From the sequence record NC_048023.1: 39,747 nt of DNA; one strand, 5' to 3'. Positions 29,894 to 38,801 of the stretch are shown piece by piece (within the stretch, counting starts at the first letter, position 1; every line of letters begins with the position of its first letter). The stretch comes from Escherichia phage Vec13. The translations under genes and the position numbers were made by a program. The notes below the pieces were generated by a model that saw nothing but the letters and a program-made list of their open reading frames with translations, did not search any database and was not told the origin of the DNA.

Positions 29894-32800
29894 ATGGCGA
29901 CTCGTGGTATTCGCAATAACAATCCGGGTAACATCCGGGTAAGTAAGGACCAATGGGAAGGAATGACTGGAGATGATGGCGCATTTGTCACCTTCGATAG
30001 TCCAGAGTCTGGCGTCCGAGCTTTAGGTAAAAACCTGCTGTCCTACGGTCGCCGAGGTTATGACTCCATCGAGAAGATTATCAACCGATGGGCACCTCCT
30101 AACGAGAACGACACTAAGGCTTATATCGACTCAGTGGTGGCTGCAACTGGTATTCCAGCTACCCAGAGTCTCGACCTATCGGACCCTGACACCCTGTCTT
30201 CTCTGGCTCAAGCTATCAGCTTCCATGAGACAGGCTCCCGGTACGACCCTGAAGTCTATCAGAAGGGAGTCGCACGAGCACTCAATGGCATCACCCCAAA
30301 GACTCCACCAGTAAGCGCTAACGTATTTGACGCACTCACGGAAGGACTCAAGGCTAAACCTAAAGTAGCTCTGGGTGAGAACCTTCCGACCGCTGCTGGT
30401 CTGAACATTGAGGGTCAAGCACCTGAAGCTCCAAACGAATCGTTCGGTGAGATGTTCTATAAGGCTACTGGCGAGACCGTGCAGGAAAGAGAGGACCGCT
30501 CTACGTGGTTCGGTTTCGGTGCGGCTACAGAAGCTGAAGTGAAGAACTCTATGGTCGGCGTGGCTATCCGAGCTGGTCAGACTGAGGACTCACTTGATGT
30601 CATTGGCGACGTGTTCAACCCGACCAGATGGAACAACCATAAGTGGACTCGTGAGGAGCTGGACCAGATTCGTAACGCTGGGGTTATGCCTCAGTATTAC
30701 GGAGTCATTACTGGTGGCTCTCCTCAGAACCTGACCGAGCTTATTAACTTGGCGCTTGAGAACCAGAAGTTGGACCAAGAGAAGGCCAAGGCTGGGACTG
30801 GTGCTCAGTTAGCTGCTGGTGTTATTGGCGCTGGTGTGGACCCTCTAACATACGTTCCCATTGCTGGACAGGTTGGTAAGGGTGGTAAGCTGGTAAATAA
30901 GATGTTTACAGTGGCTGCTCAATCCGGGGCGCTGGCTGGTGTATCTGAGATGGCCCGTACCTCAGTGGCTGGTGGTGATGCTCATGTGGCTGAAGCTATC
31001 CTTGGTGGTGCGCTATTTGGTGGCGGCATGACTGCTATCGCTGATGGACTAGGCAGAGCCTTAGGTCGCAACACTAATGAGTTCGCTGGTCCAGCAACAC
31101 GTCTAGAAGCCCGTGAGACCGCTCGTAACGTTGATGGTCAGGACCTGTCTCGTCTCCCTATTCAGGAAGGTGAGCAGACCTTTAGTCATCAAGGAGTTAA
31201 GTTCGCTGACGTTCCGAATGAGCCTGGTAGTGTACGGCTTGAAGACGGCTCAATCCTGATTGGTGAGAACCCTCTGAACCCTAAGACACGTCAAGTCTTT
31301 GACGAAGTGATTGAGCCGGAACGTGCCGCTGCTGGTGTGAACCTTGGTGGACTTACCGAGATTGGCCTGAAGCTGCTTCGGTCTGAGAACCCTGAGATTC
31401 GTGGAGTAGCTGCTGACTTAGTGCGTTCACCGACTGGTATGCAGTCTGGGGCCTCAGGTAAAATCGGGACAACTGCGTCAGACGTGTTCGAGAGACTTCG
31501 TGCTGTGGACCATCGGTTCTACAACGACATCGACGATGCGGTTACTGAGGCACTAAAGGACCCGTACTTCCAGACAGCATTCTGGCGGGACTCTGGCGCA
31601 TTCCGTCAGGACATCTACCAGCGTGTGTCTATGGCTATCGAAGATGGTAGCGGAAACCTGAAGGCTGAACTGACTCCGGGAGAACTGAAAGTCTATGACC
31701 TACTGAAGAACCAGTTTGACGCCAAGCGTGAGATGATGGAGAACCCGGCGATGTTTGGTCGTCCAGACGCTCAGTCTATCTTTCCGGGCAGCCGCTTCAA
31801 GGGAACATACGTCCCGCATGTGTATAGCAACCAGATGAAGGAGCTGTACATCAAGGAGCTTGGGAGTCCAGAGGCACTACAGGAGGCCATCAAGAAGTCA
31901 TGGTTGACCAGCTATGCGTCTCGACCTGAGGTCAAGAAACGTGTGGACGAGGCACTCTTAGAGGCTGACCCTACGTTGACTCCAGAAGGACTTGCGGCTG
32001 CGGTCGATAAGTACGCCAACGATAAGGCTTATGGTATCTCTCACACCGAGCAGTTCGAGCGTTCATCCGTAATGGAAGAGAACATCAATGGTCTGGTGGG
32101 TCTGGAGAACAACAGCTTCCTTGAGGCTCGTAACCTGTTCGATAGCGATATGTCAATCGTCCTACCTAACGGTCAGACCTTCAGTGTCAACAACCTGCGT
32201 GAGTGGGACATGGACAAGATTGTCCCGGCCTACAACCGTCGAGTTAATGGCGATATTGCTATCATGGCTGGTACAGGCAAGACCACGAAGGACATGAAGG
32301 ACTTGGTTGAGACCATGATGAACAAGGCTGGGGATGACGGTAAGTTGAAAGGTGAAGTATCTACCTTACGTGACACCTTGAAGATTCTAACTGGTCGTGC
32401 TCGACGTGATGGTGCTGATGATGCAGCCTTCGCTACCGTGATGCGCACAATGACAGACCTATCGTTCTTCGCCAAGAATGCCTACATGGGTGTTCAGAAC
32501 TTAACGGAGATTGGTGGTATGCTGGCTCGTGGCAACGTTCGTGCACTGCTTCATGGAGTCCCTATTTTCCGTGACCTAGCCTTCCGTAACAAGAAGGTTG
32601 GGGCCTCGGAGATTAAGGACCTGCATAATGTGATCTTCGGTAAGGAACTGGACGACTCAATCCGTCCGTCTAAACAGGATGTCATTGACCGTCTGCGGTC
32701 TTACAGTGACCTCGGTCGTGGTACAGCTACAGCTCTGGGGACTGCCAAGTATTACACTGGCGAACTTGCAGTACGCTCTCCGTTCACTAAAGTCCTCAAC

Positions 32801-33781
32801 GGTACGACCAACTACCTGTTAGATGCTGGACGTCAAGGCTTCCTGTCTGACATCGTGGAGCATAGCCTGACTGGTAGTAAGCGTAAGTTCGATGACCGCT
32901 GGCTTAAGACCGCTGGTATCTCTGACGAGCAGTGGAAGGGAATTAAGTCCCTCATCCGTGAGTCAGTGACGCGTGGTCCAGACGGGACGTACACCATCAA
33001 GGATAAGAAGGCGTTCAGTCAGGACCCAAGGGCTATGGACCTCTGGCGTATGGGTGACACCATCGCTGATGAGACCCTGCTCCGTCCCCACAAGCTGAGC
33101 AACATGGACGCCAAGGCTTATGGTCCGATAGCGAAGACTGTCTTGCAGTTTAAGAACTTCGTTATCAAGTCTATCAACGGTCGAACCATGCGTACCTTCT
33201 ACAACGCCACCAAGAACAACCGAGCTATGGATGCTGCACTGTCCACGGTTATGTCTATGGGTCTGGCTGGGATGTACTACATGGCTCAGGCGCACATCAA
33301 GGCTTACGCTATGCAGGACGGTCGTGACCGTGAGTACCTGAAGCAAGCCCTGAACCCGACGATGATTGGCTATGCGGCTCTATCCCGTAGCTCCCACTTG
33401 GGTGGACCTCTTGGGGTCGCCAACATTCTGGGTGGCATCGCTGGGTATGAGGACACTAAGTTACTCCGCTCGTCTATCCTTCCTCGCTCACCTACCGAGA
33501 AGACGGAGAAGCCAATCGCCTTTGGTGCTGCTTCCAGTGGTCCGGTAATGAATGTGGTCGGCAACTTCCTTGAGCAGGTCCCGGCTTTCGGCTATGCTGC
33601 TAACGTTGGTGCTACGGCTTACAACTTGGCGGGATACCTCAAGGCTGATACCCGTGTCAACGAGCGAGACTACATGACCGGGATGTATAACACGTTCCGT
33701 GAACTTGTACCGAATGACCCGATTACCCAGAAGTTGCTGCTTGGAACGTTTGAGGAGCAAGGCATCCACATCAAGGACTAA
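29894..33781 (+). CDS. Internal virion (core/ejectosome) protein gp16 homolog with divergent N-terminal domain
   Basis: 1295 aa; from about residue 200 colinear with T7 gp16 (STWFGF, VITGGSPQNL, LRSPTGMQSGASGK, NPAMFG, TYVPHVY, NSFLEARNLFDSD, PHKLS, ALSRSS); N-terminal about 200 aa lack the T7 lytic transglycosylase motifs. Confidence 0.95.
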   Translation: MATRGIRNNNPGNIRVSKDQWEGMTGDDGAFVTFDSPESGVRALGKNLLSYGRRGYDSIEKIINRWAPPNENDTKAYIDSVVAATGIPATQSLDLSDPDTLSSLAQAISFHETGSRYDPEVYQKGVARALNGITPKTPPVSANVFDALTEGLKAKPKVALGENLPTAAGLNIEGQAPEAPNESFGEMFYKATGETVQEREDRSTWFGFGAATEAEVKNSMVGVAIRAGQTEDSLDVIGDVFNPTRWNNHKWTREELDQIRNAGVMPQYYGVITGGSPQNLTELINLALENQKLDQEKAKAGTGAQLAAGVIGAGVDPLTYVPIAGQVGKGGKLVNKMFTVAAQSGALAGVSEMARTSVAGGDAHVAEAILGGALFGGGMTAIADGLGRALGRNTNEFAGPATRLEARETARNVDGQDLSRLPIQEGEQTFSHQGVKFADVPNEPGSVRLEDGSILIGENPLNPKTRQVFDEVIEPERAAAGVNLGGLTEIGLKLLRSENPEIRGVAADLVRSPTGMQSGASGKIGTTASDVFERLRAVDHRFYNDIDDAVTEALKDPYFQTAFWRDSGAFRQDIYQRVSMAIEDGSGNLKAELTPGELKVYDLLKNQFDAKREMMENPAMFGRPDAQSIFPGSRFKGTYVPHVYSNQMKELYIKELGSPEALQEAIKKSWLTSYASRPEVKKRVDEALLEADPTLTPEGLAAAVDKYANDKAYGISHTEQFERSSVMEENINGLVGLENNSFLEARNLFDSDMSIVLPNGQTFSVNNLREWDMDKIVPAYNRRVNGDIAIMAGTGKTTKDMKDLVETMMNKAGDDGKLKGEVSTLRDTLKILTGRARRDGADDAAFATVMRTMTDLSFFAKNAYMGVQNLTEIGGMLARGNVRALLHGVPIFRDLAFRNKKVGASEIKDLHNVIFGKELDDSIRPSKQDVIDRLRSYSDLGRGTATALGTAKYYTGELAVRSPFTKVLNGTTNYLLDAGRQGFLSDIVEHSLTGSKRKFDDRWLKTAGISDEQWKGIKSLIRESVTRGPDGTYTIKDKKAFSQDPRAMDLWRMGDTIADETLLRPHKLSNMDAKAYGPIAKTVLQFKNFVIKSINGRTMRTFYNATKNNRAMDAALSTVMSMGLAGMYYMAQAHIKAYAMQDGRDREYLKQALNPTMIGYAALSRSSHLGGPLGVANILGGIAGYEDTKLLRSSILPRSPTEKTEKPIAFGAASSGPVMNVVGNFLEQVPAFGYAANVGATAYNLAGYLKADTRVNERDYMTGMYNTFRELVPNDPITQKLLLGTFEEQGIHIKD

Positions 33782-33799
33782 ACTATCACTATAGGAAAC
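33777..33799 (+). promoter_or_regulatory. Phage RNAP promoter (phi17-like)
   Basis: ctaaACTATCACTATAGGaaacg; +1 G at 33794. Confidence 0.85.
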
Positions 33800-33846
33800 G
33801 GGAGGCGCTACCATAGGTCTCCCTTTAATTCATAACAGGAGGCATA

Positions 33847-35877
33847 ATGTCCACGATTACACAATTCCCTTCAGGAAGCACTCAGTACAGGATTGAGTTC
33901 GACTACCTAGCCAGAACGTTTGTTGTTGTTACGCTGGTGAATAGCTCTAACCCTACCCTGAACCGTGTACTGGAAGTTGGTCGAGATTACCGATTCCTTA
34001 ATCCAACGATGATTGAGATGTTGGTTGACCAATCAGGTTTCGACATCGTTCGCATTCACCGTCAGACTGGAACTGACTTAGTGGTAGACTTCAGGAATGG
34101 CTCAGTGTTGACAGCTAGTGACCTGACAAATTCAGAGCTTCAGGCTATCCATATTGCAGAAGAAGGTCGAGACCAAACGGTTGACTTAGCGAAGGAATAT
34201 GCCGATGCTGCTGGTAGCTCTGCTGGCAACGCTAAGGATAGCGAGGACGAAGCACGCCGAATCGCTGAGAGTATCAGGGCGGCTGGTCTAATTGGTTATA
34301 TTACCCGTCGCTCCTTCGAGAAAGGCTACAACGTTACAACATGGAGCGAGGTCCTGCTATGGGAAGAGGATGGTGATTATTACCGCTGGGATGGTACGCT
34401 TCCAAAGAACGTTCCTGCTGGTTCAACTCCTGAAACTTCCGGTGGGATTGGATTAGGTGCGTGGGTTAGTGTTGGTGATGCTGCTTTAAGAAGTCAGATT
34501 TCAAACCCGGAAGGGGCAATACTCTACCCAGAATTACAGATGGCGCGCTGGCGAGATGAGGGTGATGTTCGCGGATGGGGTGCTAAAGGTGATGGTTCTG
34601 CGGATGATACAGAGGCTTTCAAGGCAGCACTGGCAACAGGAAAGAATCTATATATCCCCGTTGGTATATACATCATTAAAGAGACTTTGTACTTTAAGAA
34701 CCAAGTTATTAAAGGTGGGGGAATATCTCCATCACCAAGTCTTGGTACAATCCTAGCAATCTCTCACAATGAAGCAGCTTTTAAGTATGACGTTAACTCT
34801 GGATACTCCATGGGTGGCTACTTAGGCGGTTTCTTCATTGATTATGGTGAGAACAAGCCAGACAACTATGGTGGTCGCAAAGGTATTGATATTGGTGATG
34901 CATCGCAGACAGCATGGCCTTCACAATTTATCATTGAGAACATCATAGTACGTGGTGCGTACTTTGGTATTCATGACGTGACAGGGGCTTTTCAGTATAC
35001 CATGCGTAACGTATTGGCGATTAATTGCTGGGAAGGTTTCCGTAAGCATATTGGTACTACAGTCCTAATGGATACATGCTACGCACTTAATTGTTATCAG
35101 GCGTTCAATTTTGCAAACGTGTACAACATGACTATGAACAATTGTGCAATGGACGGCTGTAATGATATACAAGGTCTACAGGCTTTTGATATTAACAACT
35201 GTAAAGGTATGGTAATAAATGGCATGTACAGCGAGAACTGTGAGATTCATCATAATGGACATGCCTCTATATATATTCATGGGGACTCAACAGTAACACT
35301 TAACGGATATGCACTACATTCCCACAAAGTTCTGGCTAGTTCTGGGGAGGCTTACTTCTTACGAGCACATGAAAGTTCTCGCGTTACTGTTGATGGTATC
35401 TTCTTCGGGGAAGACCTGACGTCTACTGCTGTATTCATGTACCCAGTCCTGTCTTCTGGGGATGCTAGAGTTAAGCTTGGAACTACTAGATTGAAGTTGT
35501 GGACTGGTGCTACGGGTGGGGCGTCACTGGCTGCACTAGGTAACAGTTTGATTGAGTATGACAACACAGTCTTTGTTCCAACAGTCACGGTCGGATGGTG
35601 TAGCAACAACGGAGTTGTAGCCAAAGGTACTCTTGCAGTTAACACTACGCTTGAACCAGGTGCTGACCTGAATGCCGGTAATATTACCCTCACTGGTGAC
35701 TACAAGCCAACTAAGGGGGATGTGCTTGTGTATGGTGCTACCTTTGATGTTAAGTCATGTTCAATTATTCTCAAGCCAATAGGGGAGAATTTATGTAATG
35801 TGTACATTAAGAACTTAAGTGCAGGTGGTAGTGCTACTCTTCTTGGTGACTTGATGGTACAGGCCATCCGACGCTAG
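33847..35877 (+). CDS. Tailspike/tail fiber: T7 gp17-like N-terminal adaptor plus pectate-lyase-like beta-helix (putative polysaccharide depolymerase)
   Basis: 676 aa; N-terminus FDYLARTFVVVTLV, DYRF, IHIAEE match T7 gp17; from about residue 240 WGAKGDGSADDTEAFKAAL and repetitive G/N/C-rich stretches typical of pectate lyase superfamily tailspikes. Confidence 0.9.
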   Translation: MSTITQFPSGSTQYRIEFDYLARTFVVVTLVNSSNPTLNRVLEVGRDYRFLNPTMIEMLVDQSGFDIVRIHRQTGTDLVVDFRNGSVLTASDLTNSELQAIHIAEEGRDQTVDLAKEYADAAGSSAGNAKDSEDEARRIAESIRAAGLIGYITRRSFEKGYNVTTWSEVLLWEEDGDYYRWDGTLPKNVPAGSTPETSGGIGLGAWVSVGDAALRSQISNPEGAILYPELQMARWRDEGDVRGWGAKGDGSADDTEAFKAALATGKNLYIPVGIYIIKETLYFKNQVIKGGGISPSPSLGTILAISHNEAAFKYDVNSGYSMGGYLGGFFIDYGENKPDNYGGRKGIDIGDASQTAWPSQFIIENIIVRGAYFGIHDVTGAFQYTMRNVLAINCWEGFRKHIGTTVLMDTCYALNCYQAFNFANVYNMTMNNCAMDGCNDIQGLQAFDINNCKGMVINGMYSENCEIHHNGHASIYIHGDSTVTLNGYALHSHKVLASSGEAYFLRAHESSRVTVDGIFFGEDLTSTAVFMYPVLSSGDARVKLGTTRLKLWTGATGGASLAALGNSLIEYDNTVFVPTVTVGWCSNNGVVAKGTLAVNTTLEPGADLNAGNITLTGDYKPTKGDVLVYGATFDVKSCSIILKPIGENLCNVYIKNLSAGGSATLLGDLMVQAIRR

Positions 35878-36035
35878 AAATGTACGCATGGATTCGCTGA
35901 GGTGGTTATCCATGAAGAGGGTGAGGAGTGGGGTGTAGATGTTAGAAGGTTGTGGAGGTAGAGGCTAACTACACGCTAACCAACGTAGGGTAACAACTTT
36001 GGGTCACGGACGACCCGCTTTAAACTGGAGGTTTT

Positions 36036-36591: not shown

Positions 36592-37041
36592 ATGCTCGAA
36601 TTTTTAAAGAGAGCGGCTCCGTGGTTACTTGCAGCAGTGATGTTTGCTGGTGGCTACCACACCGCTAACAATAAGTGGGAGGCTAAGGTCAATGAAGAAT
36701 ACACCTCGAATCTTAAGGCATCGGAAGATACAAGGCTTGCTGTCCAAGCTGAAGTCAACAAAGTGTCCAAACGGTTTCAGGACGAAATGTCCTCGCTGGA
36801 AGGCAGCACTGATAGGATTATTGCTGACCTTCAGTCTGACAATAAGCGGCTGCGCATCCGAGTCAAACCAACGAGTGGAACCACGCAAAGTGACGGTCGA
36901 TGCGTCATTGATGGTTACGCCGAACTTGACGAACGAGATGCTAAACGTCTTATCGCCATCGGAGTGAAAGGAGACAAGTGGATTAAGGCCCTTCAGGACA
37001 CTGTGAGAGCCTTGCAGCAAGATAAGGAGGTGACGCATTGA
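36592..37041 (+). CDS. Rz-like i-spanin (T7 gp18.5 homolog)
   Basis: 149 aa; MLEFL start, N-terminal [27 protein letters not shown] and DERDAKRL match T7 gp18.5. Confidence 0.9.
36689..36967 (+). CDS. Rz1-like o-spanin lipoprotein embedded in +1 frame of Rz (T7 gp18.7 homolog)
   Basis: [25 protein letters not shown] matches T7 Rz1 [25 protein letters not shown]; lipobox LTISGC; start at internal ATG (track ORF 36644..36967). Confidence 0.8.
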   Translation, partial: SMKNTPRILRHRKIQGLLSKLKSTKCPNGFRTKCPRWKAALIGLLLTFSLTISGCASESNQRVEPRKVTVDASLMVTPNLTNEMLNVLSPSE

Positions 37042-38801
37042 GTAAAGATTTAGTGGCGCGTCAGGCGCTAATGACTGCCCGTATGAAGGCAGACTTCGTG
37101 TTCTTCCTGTTCGTCCTGTGGAAAGCTCTGTCACTACCAGTCCCGACTCGCTGTCAGATTGACATGGCGAAGAAACTATCGGCTGGGGACAACAGGCGTT
37201 TCATCCTACAGGCGTTCCGTGGTATCGGGAAGTCATTCATTACGTGCGCATTCGTGGTATGGAAACTGTGGAACAACCCAGACTTGAAGTTCATGATTGT
37301 GTCGGCCTCAAAGGAACGAGCCGATGCAAACTCCATCTTCATCAAGCGAATCATCGACCTCATGCCTCAGCTTCGGGAACTCAAACCTAAGCAGGGGCAG
37401 CGAGATGCGGTTATCAGCTTCGACGTTGGACCAGCCAAGCCAGACCACTCACCTTCGGTTAAGTCCGTTGGTATCACTGGTCAGTTGACTGGTAGTCGTG
37501 CTGACATCCTGATTGCCGATGACGTGGAGGTTCCGAACAACTCAGCGACTCAGGCTGCCCGAGACCGTCTGTCAGAGCTTGTGAAAGAGTTCGACGCTAT
37601 CCTGAAGCCGGGAGGTACAATCATCTATCTGGGTACTCCTCAGAACGAGATGACCTTGTATCGTGAGCTGGAAGGCCGTGGGTACACCACTACTATCTGG
37701 CCTGCTCGTTATCCACGCGACAGGAAGGACTGGCAGTCTTACGGCGACCGTCTGGCTCCAATGCTTCAGGCAGAGCTTGAAGAGGACCCTGAGTCATTCT
37801 ACTGGCGTCCGACTGATGAAGTACGCTTCGATGATACGGACCTTAAGGAACGTGAGCTGTCATATGGTAAGGCTGGCTTCGCTCTACAGTTCATGCTTAA
37901 CCCGAACCTTAGTGATGCCGAGAAGTACCCACTGAAGCTCCGTGACCTTATCGTAGCGGACTTGGACCCAGCGTCCAGCCCAATGGTCTACCAATGGTTA
38001 CCGAACCCTCAGAACAAGCGTGAGGACGTTCCTAACGTTGGACTCATGGGTGACTCGTACCACACGTATCAGACTGTAGGTTCTGCCTTCAGCTCATACA
38101 CCCAGAAGATTCTGGTCATTGACCCTAGTGGTCGTGGTAAGGATGAAACTGGCTATGCGGTACTGTACCAGCTTAATGGCTACATCTTCGCTATGGAAGT
38201 TGGTGGTATGCGTGGTGGTTATGAAGACTCTACGCTTGAAGCACTGGCTAAGATTGGTCGTAAGTGGAAGGTCAACGAATACGTCATTGAGGGTAACTTC
38301 GGTGATGGTATGTACCTTGAGCTATTCAAGCCTGTAGCGGCCCGTATCCATCCTGCGGCTGTAACTGAAGTGAAGAGTAAGGGTCAGAAAGAACTCCGCA
38401 TCTGTGACGTTCTGGAGCCTATCATGGGGTCTCACCGACTTATCGTTAACGCTGCTGCTATCGTTCAAGACTACCAGTCAGCCTCTGATAAGGATGGTGT
38501 TCGTAACCCTATCTACTCTCTCTTCTACCAGATGACACGTATATCTCGTGAACGTGGAGCCTTGGCACACGATGACCGACTTGATGCTCTGGCTATCGGT
38601 GTACAGTTCTTCGTGGAGTCTATGGCTAAGGATGCCAACAAGGGCGAACGTGAAGTCACTGAGGAGTGGCTGGAGGAACAGATGGAGAACCCACGGAAAG
38701 GCTTCGAGTCCATCCACACTGAGTTCTGGGACAATGGGGTCCGGGTAACTCACGATGTGGACGACGTGCTGGGACTAGGGTCCTACGTTACGTTCCACTA
38801 G
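37038..38801 (+). CDS. Terminase large subunit (T7 gp19 homolog), TTG start
   Basis: 587 aa; [118 protein letters not shown] match T7 gp19; SD aaggagg 7 nt before TTG. Confidence 0.97.

Follow-up and report, generated by a model that had tools for sequence, protein, structure and literature searches.

The subject of this analysis is the tailspike gene of Escherichia phage Vec13 (positions 33847-35877, plus strand), examined in the context of its whole sequence record, NC_048023.1 (39,747 nucleotides, hereafter the window). We propose that the Vec13 tailspike is a homotrimer in which a beta-helix module binds and cleaves the O-antigen of E. coli serogroup O2 and/or O1 as an endoglycosidase and sets host range; we give this reading a probability of roughly 0.7. 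The trimeric state is expected by analogy with solved tailspikes, the O2/O1 substrate is suggested by genetic and host-range data for phages whose homologues are 81% and 30% identical, and hydrolase chemistry is suggested by conserved carboxylates together with the sugars that make up the O units of O1 and O2. An exact-sequence look-up matched the protein to AXF38930.1 / YP_009807371.1 (100% identity). It belongs to the ordinary class of modular tailspikes.

In the proposed mechanism, the first ~150 residues would attach the spike to the tail in the manner of T7 and K1F gp17, followed by a Tail_spike_N domain and a linker. The module would then bind O-antigen chains on the lipopolysaccharide of E. 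coli serogroups O2 and/or O1, which would be cleaved endoglycosidically by Asp436 and Glu463, two carboxylates on consecutive helix rungs, close to Asp377 and Lys400. Such cleavage would let the virion move down to the outer membrane, and the module would in this way determine which hosts are infected.

Domain architecture of the Vec13 tailspike

The gene and its domains are listed below.

33847..35877, plus strand: tailspike gene, an ATG-initiated open reading frame (ORF) of 676 residues
33847..34296, plus strand: N-terminal tail-attachment (anchor) domain of T7 gp17 type, residues 1 to ~150 (Pfam and PDB matches)
34312..34479, plus strand: Tail_spike_N domain, residues 156-211 (PF18668, 69.2 bits; PDB 4oj5, 5w6h, 5w6f, 4qnl)
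34567..35604, plus strand: predicted right-handed parallel beta-helix, putative catalytic and O-antigen-binding domain, residues ~241-586
34576..34632, plus strand: WGAKGDGSADDTEAFKAAL motif, residues 244-262, start of the beta-helix module and 5' exchange junction
35605..35874, plus strand: C-terminal beta-sandwich domain resembling lectins or carbohydrate-binding modules, residues 587-676

The anchor was recognized by Phage_T7_tail (PF03906, residues 11-115, 56.6 bits; cut-off 25.2), and the solved N-terminus of T7 gp17 aligned to residues 7-116 (7boz, 8dsp and 8e4g, E 1e-16 to 2e-15), in agreement with the initial annotation, which had placed a T7 gp17-type attachment domain here from the sequence. 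PDB chain 9vvr_A was near-identical to residues 1-250, with few substitutions; this match and the 18 chains of 9vvr suggest that a virion structure showing how trimers dock on the gp11/gp12 tail exists for a sister tailspike. The small Tail_spike_N domain is also found at the N-termini of CBA120 TSP1/3/4 and G7C tailspikes.

The remainder of the protein had been described in the initial annotation as a pectate-lyase-like beta-helix module opening with the WGAKGDGSADDTEAFKAAL motif, with a domain search named as a check. The motif is present, and the search returned one short pectate-lyase-type match and one beta-helix match below threshold: Pect-lyase_RHGA_epim (PF12708) scored 32.5 bits (cut-off 27) at residues 241-292, no more than the opening 52 residues of the helix, and Beta_helix (PF13229) scored 24.0 bits at residues 363-493, slightly under its cut-off of 25.9. 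PDB sequence searches with the module or its profile gave matches confined to the first ~60 helix residues, where the GAKGDG..DDT motif lies, and the fold was therefore taken from a structure model, which predicts a right-handed parallel beta-helix of the pectin-lyase-fold superfamily. The best Foldseek match of the module was the Sf6 tailspike (E 1.6e-8, ~12% identity, TM ~0.46), and profile comparison with this tailspike gave a probability of 96.8% for the first part of the helix. Gly/Asn/Cys-rich repeats had also been claimed. The enrichment holds, being moderate (12.4/6.6/2.1% in the C-terminal two thirds vs 8.3/4.5/0.8% in other Vec13 proteins); the repeats do not hold at the sequence level, because no tandem sequence repeats were found in the tailspike, and the helix "repeats" are structural rungs only.

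Several assignments to known enzyme classes were rejected. Neither PF00544 (PL1) nor PF00295 (GH28) matched the tailspike up to E 1, and with PF12708 reaching no further than 52 residues, the protein is neither a pectate lyase proper nor a GH28 polygalacturonase; "GH28-related" names given to distant homologues derive from the N-terminal motif only. An endosialidase tailspike of the K1F gp17 type was likewise discarded, as the beta-propeller PF12217 and the C-terminal chaperone PF13884 were absent in Pfam searches and similarity to K1F stops at residue 262. No NCBIfam family matched the tailspike.

Module family and conserved residues

The module is rare, with 111 cluster representatives at E <= 1e-3 and 15 at E <= 1e-30 among 1.84 billion. 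Its closest relatives were both found in Kayfunaviruses, UFJF_EcSW4 (99.5% amino acid identity over the module) and pO2 (99.3%). Three Vectreviruses (Mt1B1_P10, T145_P2 and AL505_P3) encode a free-standing homologue of 479 residues, which is ~81% identical over the whole module. Other homologues, of 620-630 residues, have a different N-terminus, and one of these is encoded in a 71-kb contig beside a second beta-helix spike (875 residues). In the 620-residue spike of this contig, the last ~90 residues are 83-90% identical to Vec13 and the beta-helix 40-55%; judging by these alignments, the C-terminal beta-sandwich seems to have been kept or swapped independently of the helix.

A multiple alignment of 23 family members, extending down to ~25% identity, revealed four conserved polar or charged residues.

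34975..34977, plus strand: Asp377, candidate active-site residue (23/23 family members)
35044..35046, plus strand: Lys400, in the motif K..GTT (invariant in the family alignment)
35152..35154, plus strand: Asp436, in the motif NCAxD, candidate catalytic carboxylate (acidic in 23/23: 22 Asp, 1 Glu)
35233..35235, plus strand: Glu463, in the motif INGxxxE, candidate catalytic carboxylate (23/23)

All four are also kept in the homologues from SU57, T145_P1, KM02, 611R6 and JeanPiccard, and the GTT motif and several Cys residues are likewise conserved across the family. Asp436 and Glu463 are 27 residues apart, approximately one helix rung, and each of the four residues is located at the C-terminal end of a strand in the structure model, an arrangement that would fit the pattern expected of an active-site groove. 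Such conservation is suggestive of a glycoside hydrolase. Kayfunavirus KM02, whose recorded host is E. coli K-12, a strain that makes no O-antigen, also has the module as a full-length homologue (32% identity over 459 residues, candidate catalytic residues kept).

Evidence for an O-antigen receptor

The substrate is suggested by phages carrying homologues of the module. Mt1B1_P10 has two tailspike genes, one for the 479-residue homologue and the other for an endosialidase of 811 residues (PF12217, 740 bits; PF13884 present). Full resistance to this phage is obtained only if the K1 regulator gene emrR and the O-antigen ligase gene are both deleted; for the endosialidase-only phage P3, loss of K1 alone blocks infection; and wzy and neuB mutants arose under Mt1B1_P10 selection (PMC12361893). 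Because the endosialidase covers K1 and Mt1B1_P10 uses either K1 or O-antigen, the 479-residue homologue is left, by elimination, to serve the O-antigen route.

Receptor-binding proteins (RBPs) of this type were classified by Pas et al. 2023 (PMC10408124), with thresholds of >=30% amino acid identity over the receptor-binding domain and >=90% of members' hosts in one serogroup. Vec13_RBP and Mt1B1_P10_RBP2 were grouped in subtype X27, the receptor of which was left unassigned, and for another subtype (611R6, JeanPiccard and an SCU-116 prophage) the hosts of prophages led to an O2 assignment. The Vec13 module and this O2-assigned subtype share 29-32% identity (E 1e-20 to 1e-22), with 29.3% to 611R6 over 334 residues, 31.8% to JeanPiccard over 195 residues and 31.8% to SU57 over 233 residues, and D377, K400, D436 and E463 are retained throughout the subtype. 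In addition, the tailspike gene of the Lederbergvirus 611R6 has an OafA/YrhL O-acetylase gene directly behind it, just as oac comes after the tailspike gene in Sf6, a phage specific for O-antigen. The new points are a probable receptor for subtype X27 and, from the alignments, the homology of this subtype to the O2-assigned one.

The serotypes of known hosts were examined as well. Mt1B1 and T145, hosts of module-bearing Vectreviruses, are O2:H6 K1, and AL505 is O1:H7 K1; UFJF_EcSW4 has ATCC 11775 (O1:K1:H7) as its host, and another phage with the module bears the name pO2. With O2 (Mt1B1, T145) and O1 (AL505, ATCC 11775) represented, the typed hosts of the X27 type fit a combined O1/O2 group and not a single serogroup. 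ECOR57, the isolation host of SU57, which carries a distant homologue of the module, is O2:H1 K7.

We further compared strains without K1 in the host-range matrix given in the supplement of bioRxiv 10.1101/2023.11.22.567924. T145_P2 lyses four of seven O2 strains (ECOR-49, ECOR-50, IAI38 and M863) and two of four O1 strains (IAI58 and IAI33), compared to none of the 25 strains of other O types, among them K5 strains of other serogroups (6/11 vs 0/25, Fisher one-sided p = 0.00024). Two of the lysed strains, IAI38 (O2) and IAI58 (O1), are capsule-free, and AL505_P3 reached on IAI58 (O1:H7) a lysis score of 5, the highest seen. An encapsulated host, which the initial annotation had deduced from the predicted depolymerase, does not follow, because the evidence favours O2/O1 O-antigen and not capsule as the substrate; the K1 antigen of several hosts would be incidental. 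In the same matrix, the K1 strains ECOR-63 (O-negative) and IAI53 (O46) were barely or not lysed by T145_P2 and AL505_P3, both of which carry an endosialidase.

Weighing the evidence

Several observations weigh against an O2/O1 O-antigen endoglycosidase. The control strains in the matrix were picked by adjacency in the table and not exhaustively, and the comparison covered T145_P2 and AL505_P3; for the endosialidase-only control phage MT1B1_P3, the preprint reports an infection pattern very similar to those of these two phages (bioRxiv 10.1101/2023.11.22.567924). T145_P2 does not lyse ECOR-57, IAI54 and IAI72 (O2:H1 K7, ST73) or ECOR-46 (O1:K2), and resistance of O2:K7 and O1:K2 strains calls for an extra assumption, possibly capsule masking, differences in O-antigen subtype or intracellular defence. 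The evidence on the substrate comes from proteins 81% and ~30% identical to the Vec13 module, distances at which specificity can change. Of the near-identical Kayfunavirus tailspikes, one comes from UFJF_EcSW4, which has an O1:K1 host, and another from a phage for which O2 figures only in the name, pO2; the Vec13 spike may thus recognize O1, O2 or both. With regard to the enzyme itself, the profile alignment with Sf6 ends before the Sf6 catalytic residues, the candidate active-site residues were placed by conservation and the putative groove geometry by the strands of the model only. The literature on Vec13, UFJF_EcSW4 and pO2 contained no enzymatic, binding or halo data for the tailspike or its close homologues, and that on Vec13, pO2 and PDB 9vvr contained nothing on the Vec13 tailspike.

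One alternative is that the module is a capsule depolymerase, acting on K1 polysialic acid by a non-endosialidase route or on another K antigen. Of the five typed hosts of phages with the module, four do carry K1, and UFJF_EcSW4 grows on a K1 strain although phages of the Vec13 type lack an endosialidase. We nevertheless regard a capsule substrate as unlikely. The module-bearing Vectreviruses already own a complete K1 endosialidase, the extra infection route of Mt1B1_P10 depends on O-antigen ligase, and T145_P2 and AL505_P3 lyse IAI38 and IAI58, which have no ABC (ATP-binding cassette) capsule. The two phages also lyse O2:K5 strains and not the O25:K5 strain ECOR-51, the distant SU57 homologue comes from an O2:K7 host, and the homologous RBP subtype was assigned to O2 from prophage hosts. 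On these grounds, the K1-capsule reading was rejected. Another possibility is that the module is specific for O-antigen and has a different chemistry, being a lyase, a deacetylase or some other modifying enzyme. The fold alone does not separate these chemistries, and an invariant Lys400 amid conserved acids could be accommodated by them. However, lyases and C5-epimerases need uronic acids, and the O units of O1 and O2 consist of L-Rha, GlcNAc and ManNAc or Fuc3NAc, with no uronic acids, which disfavours lyase chemistry. The tailspike deacetylases known to us have an SGNH fold and not a beta-helix, and the invariant Asp/Asp/Glu about one rung apart resembles the hydrolases of P22, Sf6 and HK620 type. 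A chemistry other than hydrolysis thus has, in our estimate, a small chance of being correct.

It is also conceivable that the beta-helix recognizes a polysaccharide or another surface structure and does not cleave it. Some beta-helix RBPs have no known enzymatic activity, and cleavage by the Vec13 spike is a prediction. Strict conservation of four polar or charged residues in a family diverged to ~25% identity is, however, what is seen in active sites, and haloed plaques were reported for Kayfunavirus vECPPW10, which has a pectin-lyase-like tail protein (not compared with the Vec13 protein). Among the alternatives, a spike that only binds seems to us the least probable.

Within the favoured reading, O2/O1 O-antigen hydrolysis, a more specific and tentative proposal can be made, which we think has a rather limited chance of being right: X27 may be a cross-serogroup spike for the rhamnose/GlcNAc backbone common to O1, O2 (and O50), which by itself could allow a T7-like phage to infect K1 extraintestinal pathogenic E. 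coli with no endosialidase, and may represent a biochemically uncharacterised glycosidase family with a D-K-D-E active site. Among extraintestinal pathogenic and avian pathogenic E. coli, few serogroups are as common as O1 and O2. If the O2/O1 link is true, the host range of Vec13, UFJF_EcSW4, pO2 and K1E-like Vectreviruses would be predictable from sequence, the dual-receptor behaviour of Mt1B1_P10 would be explained at the gene level, and a compact (~450 residues), anchor-independent module would be available for retargeting phages and tailocins and for diagnostic reagents.

Comparison with known tailspikes

The tailspike of K1F is the positional counterpart of the Vec13 protein, with which it shares genome position, promoter context, the N-terminal 262 residues, the GAKGDG..DDT junction and the role of single RBP. 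However, K1F gp17 (1064 residues) consists of a beta-propeller endosialidase and a C-terminal intramolecular chaperone beyond this point, whereas Vec13 (676 residues) has the beta-helix and beta-sandwich and no chaperone. The Vectrevirus 479-residue spike, also of subtype X27, has the same invariant residues as the Vec13 module; it is free-standing, with a short N-terminal adaptor-binding peptide, and is partnered by an endosialidase in a dual-spike arrangement as in K1-5. In contrast, the X27 module of Vec13 is fused to a gp17 anchor and forms the sole spike. The most divergent stretch between the two proteins corresponds to residues 496-555 (60-73% identity).

The O2-assigned spikes (611R6, a Lederbergvirus; JeanPiccard and SU57, Braunvirinae; the SCU-116 prophage) are homologous to Vec13 in the helix, with the same GTT and Cys positions, and have O2 hosts, but they differ in their anchors, C-terminal parts and loop insertions, and identity is around the 30% subtype threshold. 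The tailspikes of Sf6, P22 and HK620 are O-antigen-binding and -hydrolysing beta-helices, a class in which Vec13 may be placed, and their head-binding N-termini are unlike the Vec13 anchor. The Sf6 substrate is a rhamnose-rich O unit, as are the O units of O1 and O2 (PMC7685785), which does not imply rhamnosidic cleavage by Vec13. For CBA120 TSP2 and the tailspike depolymerases of Acinetobacter and Klebsiella phages, sequence similarity to Vec13 was limited to the N-terminal motif, and their substrates differ.

An exchanged receptor-specific cassette

Comparison of Vec13 with K1F delimited the region that distinguishes the two tailspikes. Amino acid identity to K1F gp17 is 94% over residues 1-262 with none beyond, and ~160 phage records match the gene at the nucleotide level up to nucleotide 750-766 only. 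On the 3' side, nucleotide identity to K1F returns ~56 nucleotides past the tailspike stop codon. These two borders define the cassette.

34612..35933 (approximate), plus strand: exchanged cassette of low GC content, comprising the receptor-specific module and ~56 nucleotides past the stop codon

The GC content of the cassette is 0.435, compared to 0.502 for the genome. These features are best explained by horizontal acquisition of the beta-helix/beta-sandwich module onto a K1F-type anchor, which we consider probable. Exchange of receptor domains between tailspikes at a conserved junction is an established phenomenon, also in Kayfunaviruses (Pas et al. 2023, PMC10408124). In Vec13, the exchange junction falls at the GAKGDG..DDT motif, whose counterpart may be the conserved DNA motif that Pas et al. 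2023 described at the anchor end. The GAKGDG..DDT motif is common to tailspikes with unrelated catalytic domains; in K1F gp17 its counterpart is WGAKGDGVTDDTAALTSAL, at the same position, and the Mt1B1_P10 endosialidase has a weak PF12708 match at residues 32-59.

Genome setting and leader of the tailspike gene

The Vec13 genome is that of a K1F-like Kayfunavirus and is ~95% identical to several other Kayfunavirus genomes. The tailspike takes the place of gene 17, flanked by gp16 (29894-33781) and the holin gene, an order that matches K1F and UFJF_EcSW4. In an ORF survey, all 13 ORFs of at least 250 residues in the window were found at T7-type core positions. The tailspike is the sole RBP of the phage, as the window has no other tailspike-sized ORF. 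With the module being the part exchanged between phages with different hosts, the role of host-range determinant that the initial annotation had given to the protein is supported. Signals upstream of the gene and related sites in the window are as follows.

33781..33799, plus strand: phage-RNA-polymerase promoter consensus AACTATCACTATAGGAAAC, just 5' of the tailspike gene and equivalent to the position of T7 phi17
33800..33823, plus strand: short stem-loop GGGAG...CTCCC in the tailspike 5' leader, between the promoter and the ribosome-binding site (from reading of the sequence)
33837..33842, plus strand: ribosome-binding site AGGAGG, 4 nucleotides 5' of the tailspike ATG
3000, 6078, 7758, 8855, 17530, 20730, 21718, 26505, 33781 and 38900 (start positions), plus strand: promoter-like copies matching the consensus

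The 19-nucleotide promoter-like consensus AACTATCACTATAGG occurs in 10 copies in the window, all on the plus strand, compared to 0.01 expected. We take AACTATCACTATAGGAAAC to function as a promoter from its T7-like core CACTATAGG. A scan for sigma-70 promoters and terminators gave counts not above those in shuffled sequence, and the minus-strand ORFs within the tailspike gene were short and had no support. Further downstream, the large-terminase ORF (37038-38801) is listed with a TTG start and shares 4 nucleotides with the end of the Rz-like gene; the large terminase is annotated at the same length, 587 residues, in UFJF_EcSW4.

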